Source of the DNA: Patescibacteria group bacterium
Lineage (GTDB): Bacteria > Patescibacteriota > Minisyncoccia > Phycocordibacterales > UBA9973
Assembly: GCA_038061755.1 (NCBI GenBank)
Contig: JBBTYN010000004.1
Coordinates: 3,198 to 67,197 of the forward strand
Reading direction: 5' to 3'
Length of the DNA stretch: 64,000 bases
Positions 2,738 through 47,925 of this stretch are shown one piece after another. Under the pieces are notes generated by a model. That model did not search any database. It was not told where the DNA came from and saw only the letters and a program-made list of their open reading frames with translations. Numbering within the stretch: the stretch's first letter is position 1; each line of letters begins with the position of its first letter. Both the position numbers and the translations under genes were made by a program.

Positions 2738-3583
2738 ATGGAAAAGATATCTCAAGAAATTACACTTTTTGCCGAACCAATATTTCATGCTGGAAGTTTT
2801 ACTGTTACCAATGCTCTTCTAACTTCTTGGGTTGTTGTTGCTATTATTATAATTTTATCTTTCGTTTTACGTTCAAGACTTAAAACAGTTCCTGGTAAAT
2901 TGCAAAATATTTTTGAATTAATAATTGAAAATGCTCTTGGTCTTTGTGACCAAGTTACAAATAGCAGAGCTCTCTCTGTAAAAATTTTTCCAATCGCTAT
3001 ATCAGTTTTTTTCTTTATTTTAATTAATAATTGGTTGGGGATACTTCCTTTCGGTGGTTTTGGAATCATAGAAAAAAGCGAGGAAGGTCTGGCATTTATT
3101 CCATTTCTTCGTGGAGGTACAGCTGATGTAAATACCACAATCGCGCTTGCAGTAATGGCAGTTGTTGGGGCAAATGTCTTTGGTGTTTTTTCGATCGGCC
3201 TATGGAAAACTTTTAATAAATATGTTAATCTAAAGGTGCTCGGGCAAATATTTACAAAAATAAGAGAAGACAAAACTGTAATTATTGTAGCTCCAATCAC
3301 GTTCTTTGTTGGTTTAATTGAAATTATTGGTGAATTTGCAAAAGTTGCTTCGCTTTCATTTCGTCTTTTTGGAAATGTATTTGCTGGAGAAGTCCTTTTG
3401 GTATCGATGGCAGCCCTAGTGGCTTATATCGTTCCGATACCTTTTCTTTTTCTAGAATTACTTGTGGGAGTTATCCAAGCATTGATTTTTTCAATTTTAT
3501 TGGTGGTTTATTTTACTATTGGAGCTACGGACCATGATGAGCATGAATCTGAACACAAGAAACATGCAATAGCCACAGTTTAA
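2738..3583 (+). CDS. atpB: ATP synthase F0 subunit a.
   Basis: Conserved SLSFRLFGNVFAGE motif containing the essential Arg, multiple TM helices, and operon context. Confidence 0.9.
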   Translation: MEKISQEITLFAEPIFHAGSFTVTNALLTSWVVVAIIIILSFVLRSRLKTVPGKLQNIFELIIENALGLCDQVTNSRALSVKIFPIAISVFFFILINNWLGILPFGGFGIIEKSEEGLAFIPFLRGGTADVNTTIALAVMAVVGANVFGVFSIGLWKTFNKYVNLKVLGQIFTKIREDKTVIIVAPITFFVGLIEIIGEFAKVASLSFRLFGNVFAGEVLLVSMAALVAYIVPIPFLFLELLVGVIQALIFSILLVVYFTIGATDHDEHESEHKKHAIATV

Positions 3584-3647
3584 TTTATTATAAATTATTA
3601 GTCGAAATTATTAGCTTGATTAACCCGCTTTGCCGAGGCTTCGGTGA

Positions 3648-3899
<252 letters not shown>

Positions 3900-3910
3900 A
3901 ATTATTATTT

Positions 3911-4024
3911 GAAAATTTAAAATAGTTTCTTTCAAAAAGCAATCTATCTAGCAAAGCTTTGCTAGCGAACTGCTCGGCTCGTCAGCCTGCGCAAGGCTTT
4001 TCTTAAGAACTATTTTAAATTTTC
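3911..4024. repeat. A ~114-bp intergenic element bounded by perfect 17-bp inverted repeats (gaaaatttaaaatagtt / aactattttaaattttc). Inside it is the perfect 18-bp palindrome ctagcaaagctttgctag (3948..3965).
   Basis: Direct reading of the sequence. It fills the atpE-atpF intergenic region. Confidence 0.7.
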
Positions 4025-4035
4025 AAAAACTACCC

Positions 4036-4482
4036 ATGGATTCAATTATTTCAACATTTCATATAGATTGGAAAATTATTATTGCTCAAGCAATCAATTT
4101 CGGAGTTGTTTTTGTTGTTTTATATATTTTTGCTCTTAAGCCACTTTCCAAGCTGATGGTAGAACGTAGTGAAAGAATTTCTAAAGGAATTGATGATGCA
4201 AAAAAATCTAATGAATTGTTGCAACAATCTGCCGAAGAATATAAACAAAATACAATAAAATTAAGACAGATAGCAATTGATTCTCAAAAAGAACTTACTA
4301 AAGAGTTAGATCAATTGAGAGTAAAAAATCTAGATAGAATAAAAGCAGATAATAATGAATGGACAAAAAAGAGAGCGGAGCAGATGGAAATTGATAAAAA
4401 AGTTTTGGTTGAATCAGCAAAAAACGAACTCGTTACACTTGCGATGCTAGCCGTTAAAAAAATTATGGCAGAAAAAAAATAA
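4036..4482 (+). CDS. atpF: ATP synthase F0 subunit b.
   Basis: N-terminal TM helix followed by a long charged coiled coil, plus operon position. Confidence 0.85.
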   Translation: MDSIISTFHIDWKIIIAQAINFGVVFVVLYIFALKPLSKLMVERSERISKGIDDAKKSNELLQQSAEEYKQNTIKLRQIAIDSQKELTKELDQLRVKNLDRIKADNNEWTKKRAEQMEIDKKVLVESAKNELVTLAMLAVKKIMAEKK

Positions 4483-4500: not shown

Positions 4501-4911
4501 ATGGCAAAAATTTCTCCCAAAAATATAGCAGAAGCAGTGTATGAGGCAACAAAAAACAAGTCGGGACAGGGCTTGGCGTTTGTACTTAAACGCTCGGCTC
4601 AAATAATAAAAGAGAAAAGAATGTTGGGTAAGTCTAATGAAGTCTTAAGTGCTTTGCAAAATATTTTTGATAAAAAAACTGGTACTGTTAGAATGAAAGT
4701 AACAACTACGAATAATATAGGGATAGAGGAGAAAAGTAAATTAGAGAGTGAAATTAAAGAAAAATATAAGGCGCAAATTGTGATAGGTGAATTTTTTAAA
4801 AAAGAAGAATTATTAGGCGGAATGAAGATTGAGGTTGGAGATGAAATATTGGATAATACATACAAAAATAAACTTCAGAAATTAGAAAAATTTTTAATAC
4901 AAGAAAAATAA
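4501..4911 (+). CDS. atpH: ATP synthase delta (OSCP) subunit, short form.
   Basis: C-terminal motif ELLGGMKIEVGDEILDNTYKNKLQKL matches the delta C-terminus, plus operon position. At 136 aa it is shorter than typical delta subunits. Confidence 0.75.
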   Translation: MAKISPKNIAEAVYEATKNKSGQGLAFVLKRSAQIIKEKRMLGKSNEVLSALQNIFDKKTGTVRMKVTTTNNIGIEEKSKLESEIKEKYKAQIVIGEFFKKEELLGGMKIEVGDEILDNTYKNKLQKLEKFLIQEK

Positions 4912-4920
4912 AATAAATAT

Positions 4921-6415
4921 ATGTCAAACCATATCGTAGAAATTTTAAAAAAAGAAATAGAAAATTTTAAAACAGAAATTAAGGTTGAAAAAGTGGGTAA
5001 AGTATTAGAAGTTTTTGATGGCATTGCAAAAGTTTCTGGACTTTCAGATATTAAATCTTCTGAAATGGTAACTTTTTTGAATGGTGAGACGGGGGTGGCT
5101 CTTAACTTAGAGGAAGATACAGTCGGGGTAATTATTTTCGGGGAATTTTCTGCTATTAAAGAAGGGGATGAAGTAAAAGCTACTGGAAAAATTCTTGAAA
5201 TTCCAGTTTCTGATAGTATTTTAGGGAGAGTAGTAAATGCCATTGGTGTTCCTATTGATGGCAAGGGCGCTATAAAAGCCGGAAAAAACGGTTTGCAAAC
5301 TTATCCAATTGAAAAAGTGGCTTCAGGTGTTATTACTCGCTTATCTGTCTCAGAACCAGTTTCTACTGGTATAAAGGTTATTGATGCGATTATTCCTATT
5401 GGTCGTGGGCAACGCGAACTTATTATTGGTGATCGCCAAACTGGAAAAACCGCAATCGTTATTGATACAATTCTTAATCAAAAAGGTCAAGATATGATAT
5501 GCGTGTATGTCTCTATTGGTCAAAAAGATTCTAAATTGAGAAAGATTGAAGCGCGATTAGAAGAAGGCGGAGCGATGGCTTATACAGTTATCGTATCAGC
5601 TGGCGCTTCAGAAGCTGCTTCACTTTCTTATGTTGCGCCATATACAGGAGTAACTATTGCGGAATATTTTATGGATCAAGGTAAAGACGTTTTGATTATT
5701 TATGATGATCTTTCTAAACACGCTGTCGCTTATCGTGAAATTTCTCTTTTGCTCCGTCGTCCACCAGGTCGCGAGGCATACCCAGGAGATGTTTTTTATT
5801 TGCATTCTCGTTTGCTTGAACGCGCTTGTCGTAGAAATAAAGAATATGGCGGAGGTTCCATCACAGCTTTGCCTATTATTGAAACACAGGCTGGCGATGT
5901 GTCAGCATATATTCCAACAAATGTTATTTCTATTACTGATGGACAAATTTTTCTAGAAACTGATCTTTTTTATAAAGGTATTAGGCCTGCGGTAAATGTT
6001 GGTCTTTCTGTTTCTCGTGTTGGTTCTAGTGCTCAGATTAAAGCAATGAAAAAAGTGGCTGGGACATTAAAACTCGATTTAGCGCAGTTTCGTGAGCTTG
6101 AAGCATTTGCTCAATTTGGTTCTGATCTTGATGATGCCACCAAGCGCCAGCTTGAACGCGGAAAGAGAGCGGTAGAAGTATTAAAACAGCTTCAATATGC
6201 GCCAGTAAAAATTGAACACCAAATTGTCACGCTTTATGCTCTTACTAAAGGTTTTATGGATGATGTAGCAATTGATAAAATAAAAGAATTTGAACAAGGA
6301 TTCATGGAATATAGTGAACGTAATGCAAAAGTTTTTTATAAACAAATTGCTGAGAAAAAAATGTGGGATGATAAAGGCGAGGAGGAATTAAAAAAAGCAA
6401 TTGAGGATTTTAAAA

Positions 6416-6429
<14 letters not shown>
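4921..6429 (+). CDS. atpA: ATP synthase F1 alpha subunit.
   Basis: Walker A GDRQTGKT and the conserved alpha-subunit core. Confidence 0.95.
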
Positions 6430-8729
<2,300 letters not shown>

Positions 8730-8730
<1 letters not shown>

Positions 8731-8840
8731 AAATTTTGAATAGTTACTTTTAAAAACCCGCATAAAATTCTACTGAATTTTTGCTTAGACTTTGGCCCGT
8801 CGGCCTTCGTATGATTTTAAAAAGTACTATTCAAAATTTT
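8730..8840. repeat. A ~110-bp intergenic element bounded by 15-bp perfect inverted repeats (aaaattttgaatagt / actattcaaaatttt). The ends are related to those of the element at 3911..4024.
   Basis: Direct reading of the sequence. It fills the atpD-atpC intergenic region. Confidence 0.7.
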
Positions 8841-8849
8841 AAAAAATAT

Positions 8850-9296
8850 ATGTCAAAACAATTAAAACTTAAAATAGTAACTCCAGAACGTCTCGTCTTA
8901 GAAGAAATTGTAGACCAAGTAAGTTTGCCGACCACTCTTGGTGAGATAACAGTTTTGCCAGACCATATCTCTTTGATTACTGGTCTTGTGTCTGGAGATG
9001 TTGTTGCGTTCATAAACGGTGAGCATGTGCCAATGGCTGTTGTTGGTGGATTTGTGGAAATAAAGAAGAATAAAGAAGACCAAACAGAAGTTGCTGTACT
9101 AGCAGACTTTGCTGAACATATTACTGAAATTTCAGATATTGCAATAGAGAAAGCAAAAACTCGCGCGGAAGAGTTGAAGAAGTTGATGGAAAATAAAGAA
9201 CATGTGGACTTTGAACACTTTGAAGCTGAACTCGAACGCTCACTTACTCGTGTAAAAATTGCAGACAAATGGAGAACTAGGAAGTATAGGAAATAA
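8850..9296 (+). CDS. atpC: ATP synthase F1 epsilon subunit.
   Basis: Starts MSKQLKLKIVTPERLV, a beta-sandwich plus C-terminal helices. I chose ATG 8850 over the upstream in-frame ATG 8781 of the ORF track. Confidence 0.85.
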   Translation: MSKQLKLKIVTPERLVLEEIVDQVSLPTTLGEITVLPDHISLITGLVSGDVVAFINGEHVPMAVVGGFVEIKKNKEDQTEVAVLADFAEHITEISDIAIEKAKTRAEELKKLMENKEHVDFEHFEAELERSLTRVKIADKWRTRKYRK

Positions 9297-10273: not shown

Positions 10274-10317
10274 GCCAAAGGGCATCTTTGACACACTTGT
10301 CAAAGATGCCCTTTGGC
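10274..10317. repeat. Nested palindromic element, copy 1, variant A: gccaaagggcatctttgaca-cact-tgtcaaagatgccctttggc. It lies between the convergent genes rsmI and priA.
   Basis: Perfect 20-bp arms. Sits between two converging genes. Confidence 0.9.
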
Positions 10318-22138: not shown

Positions 22139-22154
22139 GTAAATTGCCAAAGAT

Positions 22155-22199
22155 GCCAAAGATGCCCTTTGACACTGAGTGTCAAAGGGCATCTTTGGC
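22155..22199. repeat. Nested palindromic element, copy 2, variant B: gccaaagatgccctttgacac-tga-gtgtcaaagggcatctttggc. It is preceded by a partial direct duplicate, gccaaagat. It lies between the convergent genes parB and rel.
   Basis: Perfect 21-bp arms. Confidence 0.9.
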
Positions 22200-22204
22200 A
22201 AACA

Positions 22205-26899: not shown

Positions 26900-28171
26900 A
26901 TGTTAGACATCAAATTTATTCGTGAAAATAAAGATATTGTGCAGGCGGGTGCGAAGAAAAAAAATATTGAGATAGATATTGATGCTTTGATTGTGCTTGA
27001 TGATAATCGCTTAAAAGAACTTAAAGAAGTAGAAGAACTTCGTAGTGAAGTAAATAGAGTTTCAAATGATATATCTCGCGATCAAGATCCAGCATCCAAA
27101 ATTCAACTAATTGAAGAAATGCGCGCAGTGAAAGAAGACATTAAAGCAAAAGAAGAAAAATTAAAAATAACCATAGAAGAATGGCAGAAAATTATGGTGC
27201 AAGTGCCTAATGTGCCAGATATGTCTGTACCAGATGGAAAAACAGATGTGGAAAACAAAGAAGTAAAAGTTTGGGGTGAAATTCCAAAATTTGATTTTAC
27301 TCCTAAAAATCATATTGAGCTTATGGAAAATTTAGGAATACTTGATATGGCTAGAGGTGTAAAAGTTGCTGGTTTTCGTGGATATTTTTTAAAGGGTGAT
27401 GGAGCTCTTCTTGAATTTGCTTTATGGCAGTTTGTGCAGGATTTCTTTTCTAAAAAAGGAGGCTTTATTCCGATGATTGTTCCTTCTCTTTTGAAACGAG
27501 AAGTATTTTTAGGTACTGGTTATCTTCCGCAAGGTGAAGAAGATTTATACAAAACGCAAGATGGCGAGTATTTATCAGGTACAGCAGAAGTTGCAATGAT
27601 GGGGCACTATATGGGTGAAATTTTAGAAAAAAAAGATCTGCCAATAAAAATGCTTGGATTTTCTTCTGCTTTTCGTCGTGAGGCGGGAAGTCATGGTAAA
27701 GATACAAAAGGTATTCTTAGAGTTCATGAATTTTTTAAATTTGAACAAGTTGTACTTTGTGAAGCACAACATACAGAATCAGTAAAATTTCATGAAGAAA
27801 TACAACGTAATACTGAAGAAATTATGGAGGCATTAGGATTGCCTTATCATGTGGTAATAAACTGTGCTGGAGATCTTGGTTTGGGTCAAGTTAAAAAATA
27901 TGACATTGAAGCTTATTTGCCATCTGAAAATACCTATCGGGAAACTGGTTCTGCTAGTTATTTTCATGATTTTCAAACAAGACGATTAAATATCCGTTAT
28001 CGTGATGAAAATGGTAAATTAAAATTTGTTCACTCTTTAAATAATACTGCTCTTTCTGGTAGACCACTCATTATGATAGTAGAAAACTACCAACAAGCAG
28101 ACGGATCTATAAAAATTCCAGAAGTTTTACGCAAATACATGGGAGGTAAGGAATTTATAAAAAATAGCTAG
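26900..28171 (+). CDS. serS: Seryl-tRNA synthetase.
   Basis: N-terminal coiled coil MLDIKFIREN and class II motifs. ATG 26900 preferred as the start. Confidence 0.9.
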   Translation: MLDIKFIRENKDIVQAGAKKKNIEIDIDALIVLDDNRLKELKEVEELRSEVNRVSNDISRDQDPASKIQLIEEMRAVKEDIKAKEEKLKITIEEWQKIMVQVPNVPDMSVPDGKTDVENKEVKVWGEIPKFDFTPKNHIELMENLGILDMARGVKVAGFRGYFLKGDGALLEFALWQFVQDFFSKKGGFIPMIVPSLLKREVFLGTGYLPQGEEDLYKTQDGEYLSGTAEVAMMGHYMGEILEKKDLPIKMLGFSSAFRREAGSHGKDTKGILRVHEFFKFEQVVLCEAQHTESVKFHEEIQRNTEEIMEALGLPYHVVINCAGDLGLGQVKKYDIEAYLPSENTYRETGSASYFHDFQTRRLNIRYRDENGKLKFVHSLNNTALSGRPLIMIVENYQQADGSIKIPEVLRKYMGGKEFIKNS

Positions 28172-28208
28172 GCAAGACCTAGCATGCTAGGTCTTGCCTA
28201 GCTATTTT
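28161..28208. repeat. Perfect 48-bp palindrome aaaatagctaggcaagacctagcatgctaggtcttgcctagctatttt. It overlaps the serS stop codon.
   Basis: Seen directly. Likely a terminator or attenuator hairpin between serS and the downstream gene. Confidence 0.85.
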
Positions 28209-29101: not shown

Positions 29102-30137
29102 AAAAAATTTCTGGAAAAATCTTGAAAAACCATTTTTTTGTTTAGCGCCAATGTCGGACGTTACCGATATTGCTTTCCGCTCCATATTGATGAAATATAG
29201 CAAGGATAGAGAAAATAAAAACAGTGTTGTTTTTTGGACAGAATTTGTTGCAGCTGATGGTTTGTGCAATAAACTTGCTAGAAAAAAACTAGCGCATATA
29301 TTAAAATTTAAAGAGAGCGAAAGACCAATTGTAGCTCAAGTTTTTGGTGCTAATCCTGATAATATGAAGTATGCTTGCCAATATATTGCTAGCCTTGGTT
29401 TTGATGGGATAGATATAAATATGGGTTGTCCAGATAAATCTGTGGTAAGCCAAGGAGCAGGTTCTGGTTTGATTAAAAATCCATTACTTGCCAGAAAAAT
29501 TATACAGGCGGCACACGCTGGGATAGATTCTGCTGGTCTACATATCCCAGTATCTATTAAAACAAGAATTGGTTTTAATAAAGAAGAAATTGATATTTGG
29601 ATAGGGGAATTGTTAAAAGAGGATATTTCTGCTTTAACAATTCATTTGCGTACCACTAAGGAATTATCACTTGCACCGGCACATTGGGATTTAATGAAAA
29701 GAATTATTGAATTACGAAATAAAATAAGCCCAGAGACTTTAATAATTGGCAATGGAGATGTAAAAGATTTAAAAGATGGGGAGGAAAAAGCTCTAAAGTA
29801 TGGTTGTGATGGAGTTATGATCGGTCGTGGAGTTTTTGGTAATCCTTGGTTTTTTAAAAGCCAAAGGGCACCTTTGACACACTTGTCAAAGGTGCCCTTT
29901 GGCAATGAGGAATCAAATGTTAAAGAAAAATTAAAAATTTTAGTAGAGCACACACAGATTTTCGAAAAGGAACTTTCAGGACCTAAACATAAAAGTTTTG
30001 CCGTTATGAAAAAGCATTTTAAAGCGTATGTGAATGGTTTTGAAGATGCAAAAGAGCTTCGAGTAAAATTAATGGAAACAGAAAATGCTAAAGAAGTTGA
30101 GAAGATAGTTAATGATTTTTTAACTCGCCTACATTAA
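29058..30137 (+). CDS. dus: tRNA-dihydrouridine synthase. It carries an in-frame copy of the palindromic element at 29860..29903.
   Basis: FFCLAPMSDVTD, VAQVFG, INMGCP and GVMIGRG motifs of Dus. The start may instead be ATG 29085. Confidence 0.85.
   Translation: MICDSKIKFMTNSNKKNFWKNLEKPFFCLAPMSDVTDIAFRSILMKYSKDRENKNSVVFWTEFVAADGLCNKLARKKLAHILKFKESERPIVAQVFGANPDNMKYACQYIASLGFDGIDINMGCPDKSVVSQGAGSGLIKNPLLARKIIQAAHAGIDSAGLHIPVSIKTRIGFNKEEIDIWIGELLKEDISALTIHLRTTKELSLAPAHWDLMKRIIELRNKISPETLIIGNGDVKDLKDGEEKALKYGCDGVMIGRGVFGNPWFFKSQRAPLTHLSKVPFGNEESNVKEKLKILVEHTQIFEKELSGPKHKSFAVMKKHFKAYVNGFEDAKELRVKLMETENAKEVEKIVNDFLTRLH
29860..29903. repeat. Nested palindromic element, copy 3, variant A. It lies inside the dus ORF and is translated as QRAPLTHLSKVPFG.
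   Basis: Perfect palindrome with the ORF left open. Relative to copy 1 it has the compensatory change t/a to c/g. Confidence 0.9.
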
Positions 30138-46377: not shown

Positions 46378-47925
46378 ATGATAAAAGAAAATAAAAAAAT
46401 AAAATCAGCTTTAATTTCAGTTTTTAATAAAGATGGACTTGAAGAAATTGTAAAACTTCTTCATAGGCATAATGTAAAAATTATTTCTACTGGTGGTACG
46501 GCAGAATTTATTCGCAAACTTAGTGTACCAGTAACTGAAGTAGAAGAAATCACAAATTATCCTGCCTTATTTGGTGGTAGAGTTAAAACACTGCAACCAC
46601 AAATTTTTGGCGGGATTTTAAATCGCCGAGATAATGTAAATGATATAAAAGAAAAAGTGGAGCACAAAATAGAAGACATTGATTTGGTAATCGTAGACCT
46701 ATATCCATTTGAAGAAACTCTAGCTAGTGGAGCTAATGAGGAAGAAATTATTGAAAAAATAGACATCGGCGGAGTATCTTTAATTCGCGCAGCGGCGAAA
46801 AATTTTAATGATGTCGTAGTGATTCCTTCAAAACATCAATATGAAGAATTAAAAAATATTTTAAAAATAAGTGACACTACGACATTAGAACAACGCAAAA
46901 AATTTGCAGGCAATGCATTTGAAGTGACAAGTATTTACGATAGTGCTATTCGTGGGTATTTTCAACCTTTGCCAAAGATGCCCTTTGACATATTGATGTC
47001 AAAGGGCATCTTTGGCAATATCCCGCTGCGCTATGGAGAAAACCCACACCAAAGAGCAAAATTTATAGGTAATTTAGAAGAGAGTTTTATACAACTTCAT
47101 GGAAAAGAGCTTTCTTATAATAATTTGATGGATACTGAAGCTGCCATTATGACCGTTTATGATTTTAGAGATCCTGCTTTCGCTATTGTTAAACATATGA
47201 ATACTTGCGGTCTGGCTGTTAGGGAAGAAGGACATTTATTTGAGGCGTATCAAGCAGCTTATAATGCCGACCCACTTTCAGCTTTTGGTGGAGTATTAAC
47301 AGCTAATAGAATTATTGAGGAAGACATCGCTAAACTTATCAAGGAACAAAAACTTTTTATAGAAGTAATTATTGCGCCAGATTTTTCAAAAGAAGCTTTA
47401 AATATTTTAATGGAGAAAAAGGATTGTAGAATTTTGAGGTGGAAAAAACCAAACCTTCCGCTAAAACAAAACAAGACTTGCTTTACTGGAATTCTGTCGC
47501 AAGATCGAGATACTCATATAGAAAGTGAGACAGATTTAAAAGTGACAACTAAGCGTGAACCAACAGAGCAAGAGAAAAAGGATTTACTCATTGCTGCAGT
47601 AATAACGAAACATTTAAAATCTAATGCTATCGCTTTAGTAAAAGATGGAACACTTCTTTCAATGGGTTGTGGACAAACTTCACGCATTGATGCATTAAAA
47701 CAAGCTATTGATAAAGCCAAAAAATTTAAATTTTCACTCAAGGGTGCTGTTATGTCATCTGAAGCATTTTTCCCATTTCCTGATTGCGTAGAGATGGCAG
47801 GGGAAGAAGGTATAACTGCTGTACTTCATCCTGGAGGTTCAAAGAATGATCAAACATCCATAGATATGGCAAATAAATACAAAATGGCAATGGTAACAAC
47901 TGGCTTTAGACATTTTAAGCATTGA
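46378..47925 (+). CDS. purH: Bifunctional AICAR transformylase / IMP cyclohydrolase. It carries an in-frame copy of the palindromic element at 46971..47016.
   Basis: MGS-like N-terminal domain and an AICARFT domain (LRYGENPHQ). Confidence 0.9.
   Translation: MIKENKKIKSALISVFNKDGLEEIVKLLHRHNVKIISTGGTAEFIRKLSVPVTEVEEITNYPALFGGRVKTLQPQIFGGILNRRDNVNDIKEKVEHKIEDIDLVIVDLYPFEETLASGANEEEIIEKIDIGGVSLIRAAAKNFNDVVVIPSKHQYEELKNILKISDTTTLEQRKKFAGNAFEVTSIYDSAIRGYFQPLPKMPFDILMSKGIFGNIPLRYGENPHQRAKFIGNLEESFIQLHGKELSYNNLMDTEAAIMTVYDFRDPAFAIVKHMNTCGLAVREEGHLFEAYQAAYNADPLSAFGGVLTANRIIEEDIAKLIKEQKLFIEVIIAPDFSKEALNILMEKKDCRILRWKKPNLPLKQNKTCFTGILSQDRDTHIESETDLKVTTKREPTEQEKKDLLIAAVITKHLKSNAIALVKDGTLLSMGCGQTSRIDALKQAIDKAKKFKFSLKGAVMSSEAFFPFPDCVEMAGEEGITAVLHPGGSKNDQTSIDMANKYKMAMVTTGFRHFKH
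46971..47016. repeat. Nested palindromic element, copy 4, variant B. It lies inside the purH ORF at the inter-domain linker and is translated as LPKMPFDILMSKGIFG.
   Basis: gccaaagatgccctttgacat-attg-atgtcaaagggcatctttggc with 21-bp perfect arms. The ORF is left open. Confidence 0.9.

Follow-up and report, generated by a model that had tools for sequence, protein, structure and literature searches.

A palindromic element in the atpE-atpF spacer of a Patescibacteria ATP synthase operon, very probably a copy of a dispersed repeat family

Organization of the atp operon and its spacers

The window (the whole 64-kb stretch of DNA that was analysed, with a GC content of 33%) carries a complete F-type ATP synthase operon on the + strand. 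Its genes, which carry Pfam labels on the source contig, are arranged as follows.

2441-2734, + strand, atpI-like ORF
2738-3583, + strand, atpB
3663-3899, + strand, atpE (stop codon TAG, 3897-3899)
4036-4482, + strand, atpF (start codon ATG, 4036)
4501-4911, + strand, atpH
4921-6429, + strand, atpA
6416-7318, + strand, atpG
7357-8730, + strand, atpD (stop codon 8728-8730)
8850-9296, + strand, atpC (start codon ATG, 8850)

The spacer between atpE and atpF spans positions 3900-4035 (136 nt), and neither atpF nor atpC is preceded by an obvious Shine-Dalgarno sequence. A search that retained one genome per species returned a top identity of 74% for AtpG, the relatives being Paceibacteria/Nomurabacteria-like Patescibacteria (CPR). 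We also looked for an empty atpE-atpF site in near-identical genomes, using exact AtpE matches; these came only from the same Hainich groundwater population, where the spacer is again 136 nt long.

On the other side of atpE, the atpB-atpE spacer contains a GC-rich hairpin at 3627-3654 (GCUUUGCC-GAGGCUUCGGUGA-GGCAAAG region) that ends 9 nt before the atpE start, so that atpE has a hairpin on either side. For this upstream spacer the z-score of the fold is only -1.55. Long and structured atpB-atpE spacers are found in approximately half of the relatives, too.

Sequence and predicted fold of the atpE-atpF element

An earlier note on this DNA described an element bounded by 17-bp perfect inverted repeats that brackets nearly the whole atpE-atpF spacer and encloses a GC-rich core with an internal 18-bp perfect palindrome. 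The 17-nt arms are as claimed, GAAAATTTAAAATAGTT at 3911-3927 being the exact reverse complement of 4008-4024. The repeat is indeed perfect, but its perfect length is 20 nt rather than 17 (TTTGAAAATTTAAAATAGTT at 3908-3927 and AACTATTTTAAATTTTCAAA at 4008-4027), and at 92% identity it extends to 25 nt (3903-3927 and 4008-4032). The repeat-bounded part covers 120 of the 136 nt of the spacer (88%), the palindrome is located at 3948-3965, and the core is GC-rich as described (60% GC over 3948-3997; arms, 10%; whole window, 33%). In first-order Markov simulations, perfect 17-mer inverted-repeat seeds no more than 300 nt apart occurred with a mean of 0.017 per 64 kb, which excludes a chance origin of the inverted repeat.

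Folded as RNA, the spacer reaches -40.8 kcal/mol, compared with -24.0 ± 3.3 kcal/mol for shuffled sequences (z = -5.2; none of 200 shuffles was as good), and its complementary strand reaches -48.3 kcal/mol (z = -5.5). The fold comprises an outer stem, P1, with 20 consecutive canonical pairs, two short continuations of this stem, set off by a bulge and an internal loop, that add 9 more pairs, and a pair of inner hairpins, P2 and P3. The parts listed below were delimited from this fold, from aligned copies and with R1, a covariance model built from six copies.

3904..4031, + strand, complete palindromic repeat copy with intact consensus core, ~125 nt (R1, 144.1 bits, E = 4e-31)
3908..3927, + strand, 5' arm of the outer stem P1, 20 nt, 10% GC, perfect complement of 4008-4027
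3929..3940, + strand, 5' side of inner P1 (minimum-free-energy structure; helix 1 pairs retained in 48 aligned copies)
3948..3965, + strand, P2 hairpin, the 18-bp perfect palindrome CTAGCAAAGCTTTGCTAG
3970..3997, + strand, P3 region with the conserved family signature CTGCTCGGCTCGTCAGCCTGCGCAAGGC (UGC/GCA base, GGCU-CGUC-AGCC tip)
4008..4027, + strand, 3' arm of the outer stem P1, ending 8 nt before the atpF ATG (4036)

The 5' arm of P1 begins 9 nt past the atpE stop codon. In inner P1, CUU (3929-3931) pairs with 4005-4007 and AAAAGC (3935-3940) with 3996-4001, and the P3 hairpin reads UGC-U-CGGCU-CGUC-AGCC-U-G-C-GCA. The element contains no ORF, and on the - strand its R1 score is 48 bits. 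Searches with Rfam 15 produced no match at gathering score in the window and nothing relevant in 3500-4200 at E-values up to 10; similarly, no relevant family was found on ten element-bearing loci at E-values up to 1, and at the position of the element ARAGORN reported neither a tRNA nor a tmRNA.

A second copy in the atpD-atpC spacer

When R1 was run with filters off, exactly two copies were found in the 64 kb, one in the atpE-atpF and one in the atpD-atpC spacer; the two thus lie within the atp operon, in sense orientation.

8722..8848, + strand, second, more degraded copy filling the atpD-atpC spacer (R1, 90.4 bits, E = 1e-18; fold z = -4.8)

Exact and three-mismatch searches of the window with the arm, P2 and P3 sequences identified no copy beyond these two, other matches being unrelated simple hairpins. 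With only two copies in this 64-kb window, both at atp, the family is not obviously high-copy in this genome.

The two copies are 78% identical and share the same architecture. An inverted-repeat scan places the outer arms of the atpD-atpC copy at 8726-8755 and 8815-8844; the atpD stop codon (8728-8730) lies at the 5' foot of its stem, and the atpC ATG (8850) lies 9 nt beyond the last paired base (8840). Between the copies, P1 shows three compensatory pair changes (G-C to A-U, A-U to U-A and A-U to G-C) and the P3 tip a fourth, from U-A to C-G. The conserved P3 base is lost in the atpD-atpC copy (GACUUUGG...CUUCGUAUGA), which looks older or less constrained.

The public atpC call (L201:11149-11634, equal to window positions 8811-9296; 161 aa) starts inside this copy. 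Alignment with relatives favours the start at 8850 (148 aa), an example of how palindromic repeats of this kind can mislead start-codon calling.

atp junctions in related genomes

We placed the atp genes by tblastn on 80 loci and extracted the spacers (L-numbers are locus labels). Homologues of the atpE-atpF core occur in the atpD-atpC spacer of L002, L013 and L022 and, inverted, of L010, and the same architecture with other stems is seen at this junction in L007 and L008 (the latter judged by eye). R1 recovers the atpD-atpC copies of L002, L007, L010, L013, L022 and L039 and misses that of L008. It also detects a further copy in the atpF-atpH spacer of L039 and copies outside the atp operon at L004:61-185, L010:95-227, L020:12612-12719 and L027:148-275. 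In all, the family is present at the atpD-atpC junction of at least nine further genomes, in differing subtypes and orientations.

Identity between the atpE-atpF copy and copies in other genomes reaches 84-89%, although the AtpG proteins of these genomes are no more than 62-74% identical. This difference excludes neutral vertical inheritance and requires either recent spread or constraint on the element. Some copies are longer than usual: in those at L002:8318-8483 and L022:8285-8439 (~155-166 nt) the P3 tip is swapped for a longer A/U-rich hairpin, and copies at L101:1378-1534 and L118:12368-12533 have the same length of ~155-166 nt. The P3 tip may tolerate expansions.

Median junction lengths in approximately 25 relatives are 91 nt for atpE-atpF, 63 nt for atpD-atpC (bimodal), 46 nt for atpB-atpE and 35 nt for atpG-atpD, followed by 14 nt for atpA-atpG, 5 nt for atpF-atpH and 4 nt for atpH-atpA. 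The earlier note had proposed a comparison of the atpE-atpF spacer with that of relatives. Its length agrees, the relatives having an equally long spacer that forms hairpins as well; in sequence, these spacers are unrelated to the element. In 21 of the 25 relatives the spacer is at least 60 nt long, and most of these spacers fold strongly, while four close relatives (L003, L017, L019 and L051) have short ones of 10-27 nt. The site seems to favour or tolerate hairpins.

A different, sequence-conserved hairpin (GCUAUUUACAUCUAGUCAGUUG...UGACUAGGAGUAAGGAGC) is common to the atpE-atpF spacers of five relatives.

L010:3435-3578, alternative atpE-atpF hairpin
L011:2914-3061, alternative atpE-atpF hairpin
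L012:3494-3575, alternative atpE-atpF hairpin
L015:3494-3586, alternative atpE-atpF hairpin
L016:3472-3586, alternative atpE-atpF hairpin

Judging from sequence conservation, this indicates that a hairpin at the junction has been vertically conserved in the subclade formed by these five.

Dispersal across metagenomes

Metagenomes were scanned for the P3 signature with the exact pattern TGCTCGGCNCNNCNGCYTGYGCAAG, for which approximately one chance match is estimated in the whole collection. The pattern was found on at least 120 metagenome contigs and on no viral contigs. Two matches in GC-rich DNA (L087 and L113) appear to be due to chance. When the surroundings of the matches were folded, the long outer stem was seen together with P2 and P3 almost everywhere. 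Among the at least 120 contigs listed, only two are atp loci (L100 and L174, in both cases the atpD-atpC spacer), and 118 lie outside atp operons. The earlier note had suggested a search of the genome for the terminal repeat; copies beyond the first were found in the atpD-atpC spacer, in relatives and in metagenomes. Searches of phage and plasmid collections with blastn gave no match to the element. In approximately 458 kb of longer loci, R1 identified 9 extra copies, or about 2 per 100 kb.

Two types of P2 can be distinguished: type A, GCAAUCURUCU-[GC hairpin]-AGCGAA, as in the atpE-atpF copy, and type B, CACRCAUA-[AUUUUCUGCUGAAAAU]-UGCUC, as in the atpD-atpC copy. Copies abut genes tightly and usually fill the whole spacer from stop codon to start codon. 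The flanking proteins, which form 124 clusters, are products of ordinary housekeeping genes. With respect to flanking ORFs, 31 copies are sense (between co-directional genes), 18 antisense, 16 convergent and 13 divergent; the ratio of 31 sense to 18 antisense rules out strict strand specificity.

Copies adjoin prfA (release factor 1) in L010 (95-227, just upstream of the gene), L101, L115 and L190, and the prfA neighbourhood is a second recurrently occupied site besides atpD-atpC. One contig, L125, carries two back-to-back copies in opposite orientation (5667-5801 on the + strand and 5792-5920 on the - strand) that overlap by ~10 nt.

Conserved pairing, a hypervariable hairpin and palindromes that continue into flanks

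The two P2 types are out of structural register in the MAFFT alignment, and the pairing statistics given here refer to the 48 type-A copies. In the inner helices, 94.1% of alignment cells are standard pairs, compared with 23-48% when partners are slid by 1-3 columns. Double-sided changes are seen in 127 cells, whereas sliding leaves 16-24, and the observed values were not attained in any of 500 shuffles. P2 alone accounts for 14-26 double-sided changes in each of five of its seven pairs, with 97% of its cells paired. The pair at the tip of P3 shows covariation between U-A, C-G and G-C.

P2 (columns 56-73 of alignment A6, corresponding to window positions 3948-3965) occurs in 22 versions in 41 copies, while the neighbouring sequence is almost invariant. 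The two commonest versions differ from each other in that all five variable pairs are flipped, and the same versions are found with different outer arms. A role of P2 as a guide that matches a flanking target was ruled out, the number of six-mer matches being 27 compared with 36 ± 7 in permutations.

The outer stem differs between subfamilies and partly between loci; it is the core, not the termini, that is most conserved. In the best-sampled subfamily, the palindrome of approximately one copy in three runs on into flanking DNA peculiar to its locus; the mean complementary run in the flanks is 5.6, compared with 3.0 for shuffled pairings. This suggests either insertion into pre-existing palindromes or hairpin-templated extension. 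At the orthologous sites L155:2045-2179 and L166:9223-9357 the flank extension differs by compensatory changes, and flank-extended palindromes are also seen in L133, L179, L192 and L197. In 90 of 102 copies the better fold is that of the strand complementary to the orientation of the model, a count over related copies that are not independent of each other.

Copies inside genes

Long ORFs read straight through the element in eight distinct cases, which belong to four protein families according to Pfam: TsaD, Fmt (methionyl-tRNA formyltransferase), phosphogluco/phosphomannomutase (PGM/PMM) and a RecG-like helicase. Loci with in-frame copies are given below.

L111:6612-7904, in-frame copy
L130:1090-2250, in-frame copy
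L175:9288-10184, in-frame copy
L093:3-1550, in-frame copy
L103:938-2407, in-frame copy
L106:835-2280, in-frame copy
L140:6455-7894, in-frame copy

The copy lies between domains I and II in PGM/PMM and between the two helicase domains in the RecG-like protein. One TsaD gene contains two in-frame copies. When two TsaD proteins are aligned, one has 27 extra residues that coincide exactly with the element and are absent from the other, and a second insertion site is common to both. Read in one orientation, the element encodes LAQAxEPSRxNFQQKIIRA; the opposite orientation gives SARPVGLRK or LLGSTACAR. Since these copies are in frame in essential genes, transcription must read through the element.

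Other palindromes in the window

A second palindromic repeat family, unrelated to the first, is represented by TTGCCAAAGATGCCCTTTGACA and its complement. It has four copies in both orientations, with stems of 20-23 bp.

10274-10317, both orientations in the set, second repeat family, directly after a gene end
22144-22201, both orientations in the set, second repeat family
29833-29930, both orientations in the set, second repeat family
46969-47018, both orientations in the set, second repeat family

This family may be REP-like or terminator-like. In addition, positions 28161-28208 form a 48-bp perfect palindrome without a loop (AAAATAGCTAGGCAAGACCTAGCA / TGCTAGGTCTTGCCTAGCTATTTT).

Nature of the element

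The earlier note left a choice between a MITE-like insertion and a long-range RNA stem acting between the c and b subunit genes. The second copy, the at least 120 metagenome contigs, the occurrence in both orientations and in all spacer types and the in-frame copies all support the insertion. A transcribed element must form the stem, so the two readings are compatible. We are highly confident that the element belongs to a family of palindromic repeats that is non-coding and dispersed in Paceibacteria (Patescibacteria/CPR), and fairly confident of the fuller explanation, namely a dispersed palindromic repeat that is selfish or mobile-like and has a possible hairpin effect in the atp polycistron. 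A family member consists of a long variable outer stem around a conserved three-way junction with two small hairpins, of which P2 is hypervariable and paired and P3 carries the signature CUGCUCG-GCNC-NNNN-GNGC-CUGCGCAAG. In its behaviour the family resembles selfish or mobile DNA, of the kind represented by MITEs and Rickettsia palindromic elements, and it probably spreads as DNA.

Conservation of the core rather than the termini could alternatively mean that the three-way junction is a binding site for a host protein, at the DNA or RNA level, with copies being selected and spread by recombination or gene conversion; REP/BIME elements, which bind gyrase or IHF, are an analogue at the DNA level. 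The identity of 84-89% between copies of distant genomes, above what the surrounding genes lead one to expect, the pairing kept through many double-sided changes, the failure to find either a target-site duplication or a transposase (see below) and the recurrence of the same sites, at atpD-atpC and upstream of prfA in four loci (L010, L101, L115 and L190), are in line with such a function. On the other hand, in-frame copies in TsaD, Fmt, PGM and RecG-like genes are a prediction of selfish spread, as are differences in presence and absence between close relatives, and orientation is mixed. We know of no candidate protein that binds the conserved core. A host function of this kind is improbable in our judgement, and we retain the selfish or mobile-like repeat as the preferred reading.

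Possible effect on atp expression

In the atp polycistron, the transcribed repeat would form a stem-loop of approximately -41 kcal/mol between the atpE stop and the atpF start. A generic hairpin effect, independent of orientation, is the one most likely to follow. The hairpin may act as a barrier to 3'-to-5' exonucleases, which would protect the upstream atpB-atpE segment, or as a processing site for a double-strand-specific (RNase III-type) enzyme, as in Correia elements; with a barrier or with processing, the levels of atpB/atpE and of atpFHAGD mRNA would become uncoupled. In addition, the stem may mask the A/U-rich stretch that immediately precedes atpF and atpC. Each of these two effects would reduce subunit b relative to subunit c, matching the stoichiometry. 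In F-type ATP synthases subunit numbers drop between the c-ring and b and again between beta and epsilon, and the two copies in the window are located at the junctions where these steps occur. The predicted fold offers the stretch of at least ~20 bp of near-continuous double-stranded RNA that is typical of RNase III sites such as those in Correia elements and the T7 R sites. A signature of an RNase III gene was absent from the DNA fragments searched, which, being fragments, are uninformative on the whole genome. The best indirect support for a function is the conserved position of unrelated hairpins after atpE in 21 of the 25 relatives. We consider a real effect of the element on atp expression to be possible, though somewhat less likely than not.

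It is a serious possibility, too, that the same repeat has no consequence for atp, the atpE-atpF and atpD-atpC junctions being merely tolerant sites without tight translational coupling; we regard this harmless insertion and a hairpin function as equally plausible. The effect could be nil, given that the stem is rich in A-U pairs and that in-frame copies are passed by ribosomes and RNA polymerase. The family occupies every spacer type in either orientation and even coding sequence, the atpD-atpC copy has a degraded P3 base and scores 90 bits compared with 144, as expected of an unselected copy, and one or the other of the two spacers is short in some relatives. The lengths of 4-14 nt at the atpF-atpH, atpH-atpA and atpA-atpG junctions are likewise consistent with coupling that forbids insertions there. 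Against a neutral insertion stand the 21 of 25 relatives that retain a long and strongly folding atpE-atpF spacer of unrelated sequence and the subclade (L010, L011, L012, L015 and L016) that conserves a different hairpin, both of which suggest that a hairpin is preferred at this position and not just tolerated. A further point against it is the occupation of atpD-atpC by the family in at least nine further genomes with differing subtypes and orientations. That both copies in the 64-kb window lie in the atp operon, on the sense strand and at the stoichiometry step-downs might instead point to a dedicated cis-regulatory RNA, such as an attenuator or sensor at atpE-atpF. This is extremely unlikely: 118 of the at least 120 metagenome copies are outside atp operons, in L010 and L100 the atpD-atpC copy runs opposite to the operon, the atpE-atpF hairpins of relatives are unrelated, and no Rfam family matches. 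The metagenome contexts and mixed orientations largely refute an atp-specific regulator. An intrinsic (Rho-independent) or partial terminator after atpE is very unlikely as well, even if a scan flags a small hairpin with a T-rich tail inside the element (AGCCTGCGCAAGGCT TTTCTTAAGA, 3984-3998). This hairpin, of five pairs, is an alternative to P3 that competes with it, and other copies do not conserve it; the outer stem, with 10% GC, is A-U-rich and is followed by CAAAAACUACCC, without a U tract; the scan itself yields 7 sites compared with 3.9 ± 2.3 in shuffles, a weak enrichment; and the in-frame copies in essential genes require read-through. Copies at atpD-atpC in either orientation and tolerated copies within genes argue against a sequence-specific regulator and a terminator alike. 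Promoter-like sites are not enriched (39 compared with 31 ± 5).

Significance

CPR/Patescibacteria genomes are tiny and are usually described as poor in mobile DNA. A literature search retrieved no relevant description of MITEs or palindromic repeats in CPR, Patescibacteria or Parcubacteria, although such an absence is not proof of novelty. The family appears to be undescribed and to have unusual properties, while the single spacer element appears to be an ordinary copy of the repeat. Tentatively, and as a rather unlikely whole, one may picture an undescribed class of mobile palindrome, widespread in Paceibacteria, that has an internal conserved junction and a fast-changing paired P2, grows at its flanks by hairpin-templated copying or inserts into palindromes, resides in frame in essential genes and was taken up more than once at the c/b and beta/epsilon junctions, where it would serve as an exchangeable module for mRNA processing or stability.

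If true, dispersed in-frame palindromes in CPR would parallel those of Rickettsia, another lineage with reduced genomes, and would have a bearing on reduced-genome evolution, gene calling, assembly and binning. It would also lead to a testable idea, that the near-constant hairpins after the c-subunit gene in this clade may be interchangeable repeats that set subunit ratios. If there is no effect on expression, the element would be an ordinary selfish insertion, and the main value of the finding would be a catalogue entry for a new repeat family.

Comparison with known systems

MITEs are shorter than approximately 500 bp, lack transposase coding capacity, have terminal inverted repeats, are dispersed, are flanked by target-site duplications and depend on an autonomous partner. 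The element shares with them its length of ~125 nt, the lack of an ORF, 20-nt perfect inverted ends and dispersed copies. Target-site duplications were found neither at 22 copies of the best-defined subfamily nor at the atp copies, with the reservation that very short A/T duplications could escape such a search, and the 124 clusters of neighbouring proteins (from fragments of up to 15 kb) contained no transposase or autonomous partner. The conserved part is the core here, unlike the termini of a canonical MITE. On these three grounds we file the family as MITE-like or Rickettsia palindromic element-like and not as a proven MITE.

Rickettsia palindromic elements are ~100-150 bp long and are found both between genes and in frame in housekeeping genes, to whose products they add a conserved peptide (PMC10969869). 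The family resembles them in being made of non-coding palindromes, in residing in a reduced, host-dependent genome and in having in-frame copies, in TsaD, Fmt, PGM/PMM and RecG-like genes; the last is a property of the family, the atp copy itself being intergenic. It differs in belonging to another phylum, in being mostly intergenic and in its variable arms and one hypervariable inner hairpin, and the likeness is one of analogy only, not of sequence comparison. ERIC/IRU sequences are imperfect palindromes of ~127 bp that lie in transcribed intergenic regions in either orientation, differ greatly in copy number from genome to genome and affect mRNA decay (PMC10969869). Their sequence and host range are unrelated, and ERIC has a conserved central inverted repeat, whereas the present family has a three-way-junction core and variable arms.

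Correia elements (CREE/NEMIS) of Neisseria, ~100-150 bp long, are co-transcribed with genes, and their hairpin is bound by RNase III or cut by it, the cuts falling at the inverted repeats, with altered expression as a result (PMC2649163, PMC10969869). Terminal inverted repeats around a conserved core are common to both, and by analogy Correia elements may be the best model for the action of the atp copy; they differ in having defined 26-bp termini, which are not seen here. Correia elements also have a TA duplication and an IHF site, and neither is seen here.

Intercistronic hairpins that stabilize mRNA are known from the segmental mRNA stability of the E. coli atp operon, from Rhodobacter puf and from the chloroplast atpH region, and the literature on atpE-atpF hairpins yielded general background only. 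The concept of a barrier is documented for chloroplasts (PMC3326301). The likeness lies in a hairpin or barrier that follows the most abundant subunit's gene and in the differential stability of segments within one polycistron. By this analogy, the difference is that the stabilizing signals there are specific to their locus, whereas here the hairpin would be supplied by a dispersed repeat.
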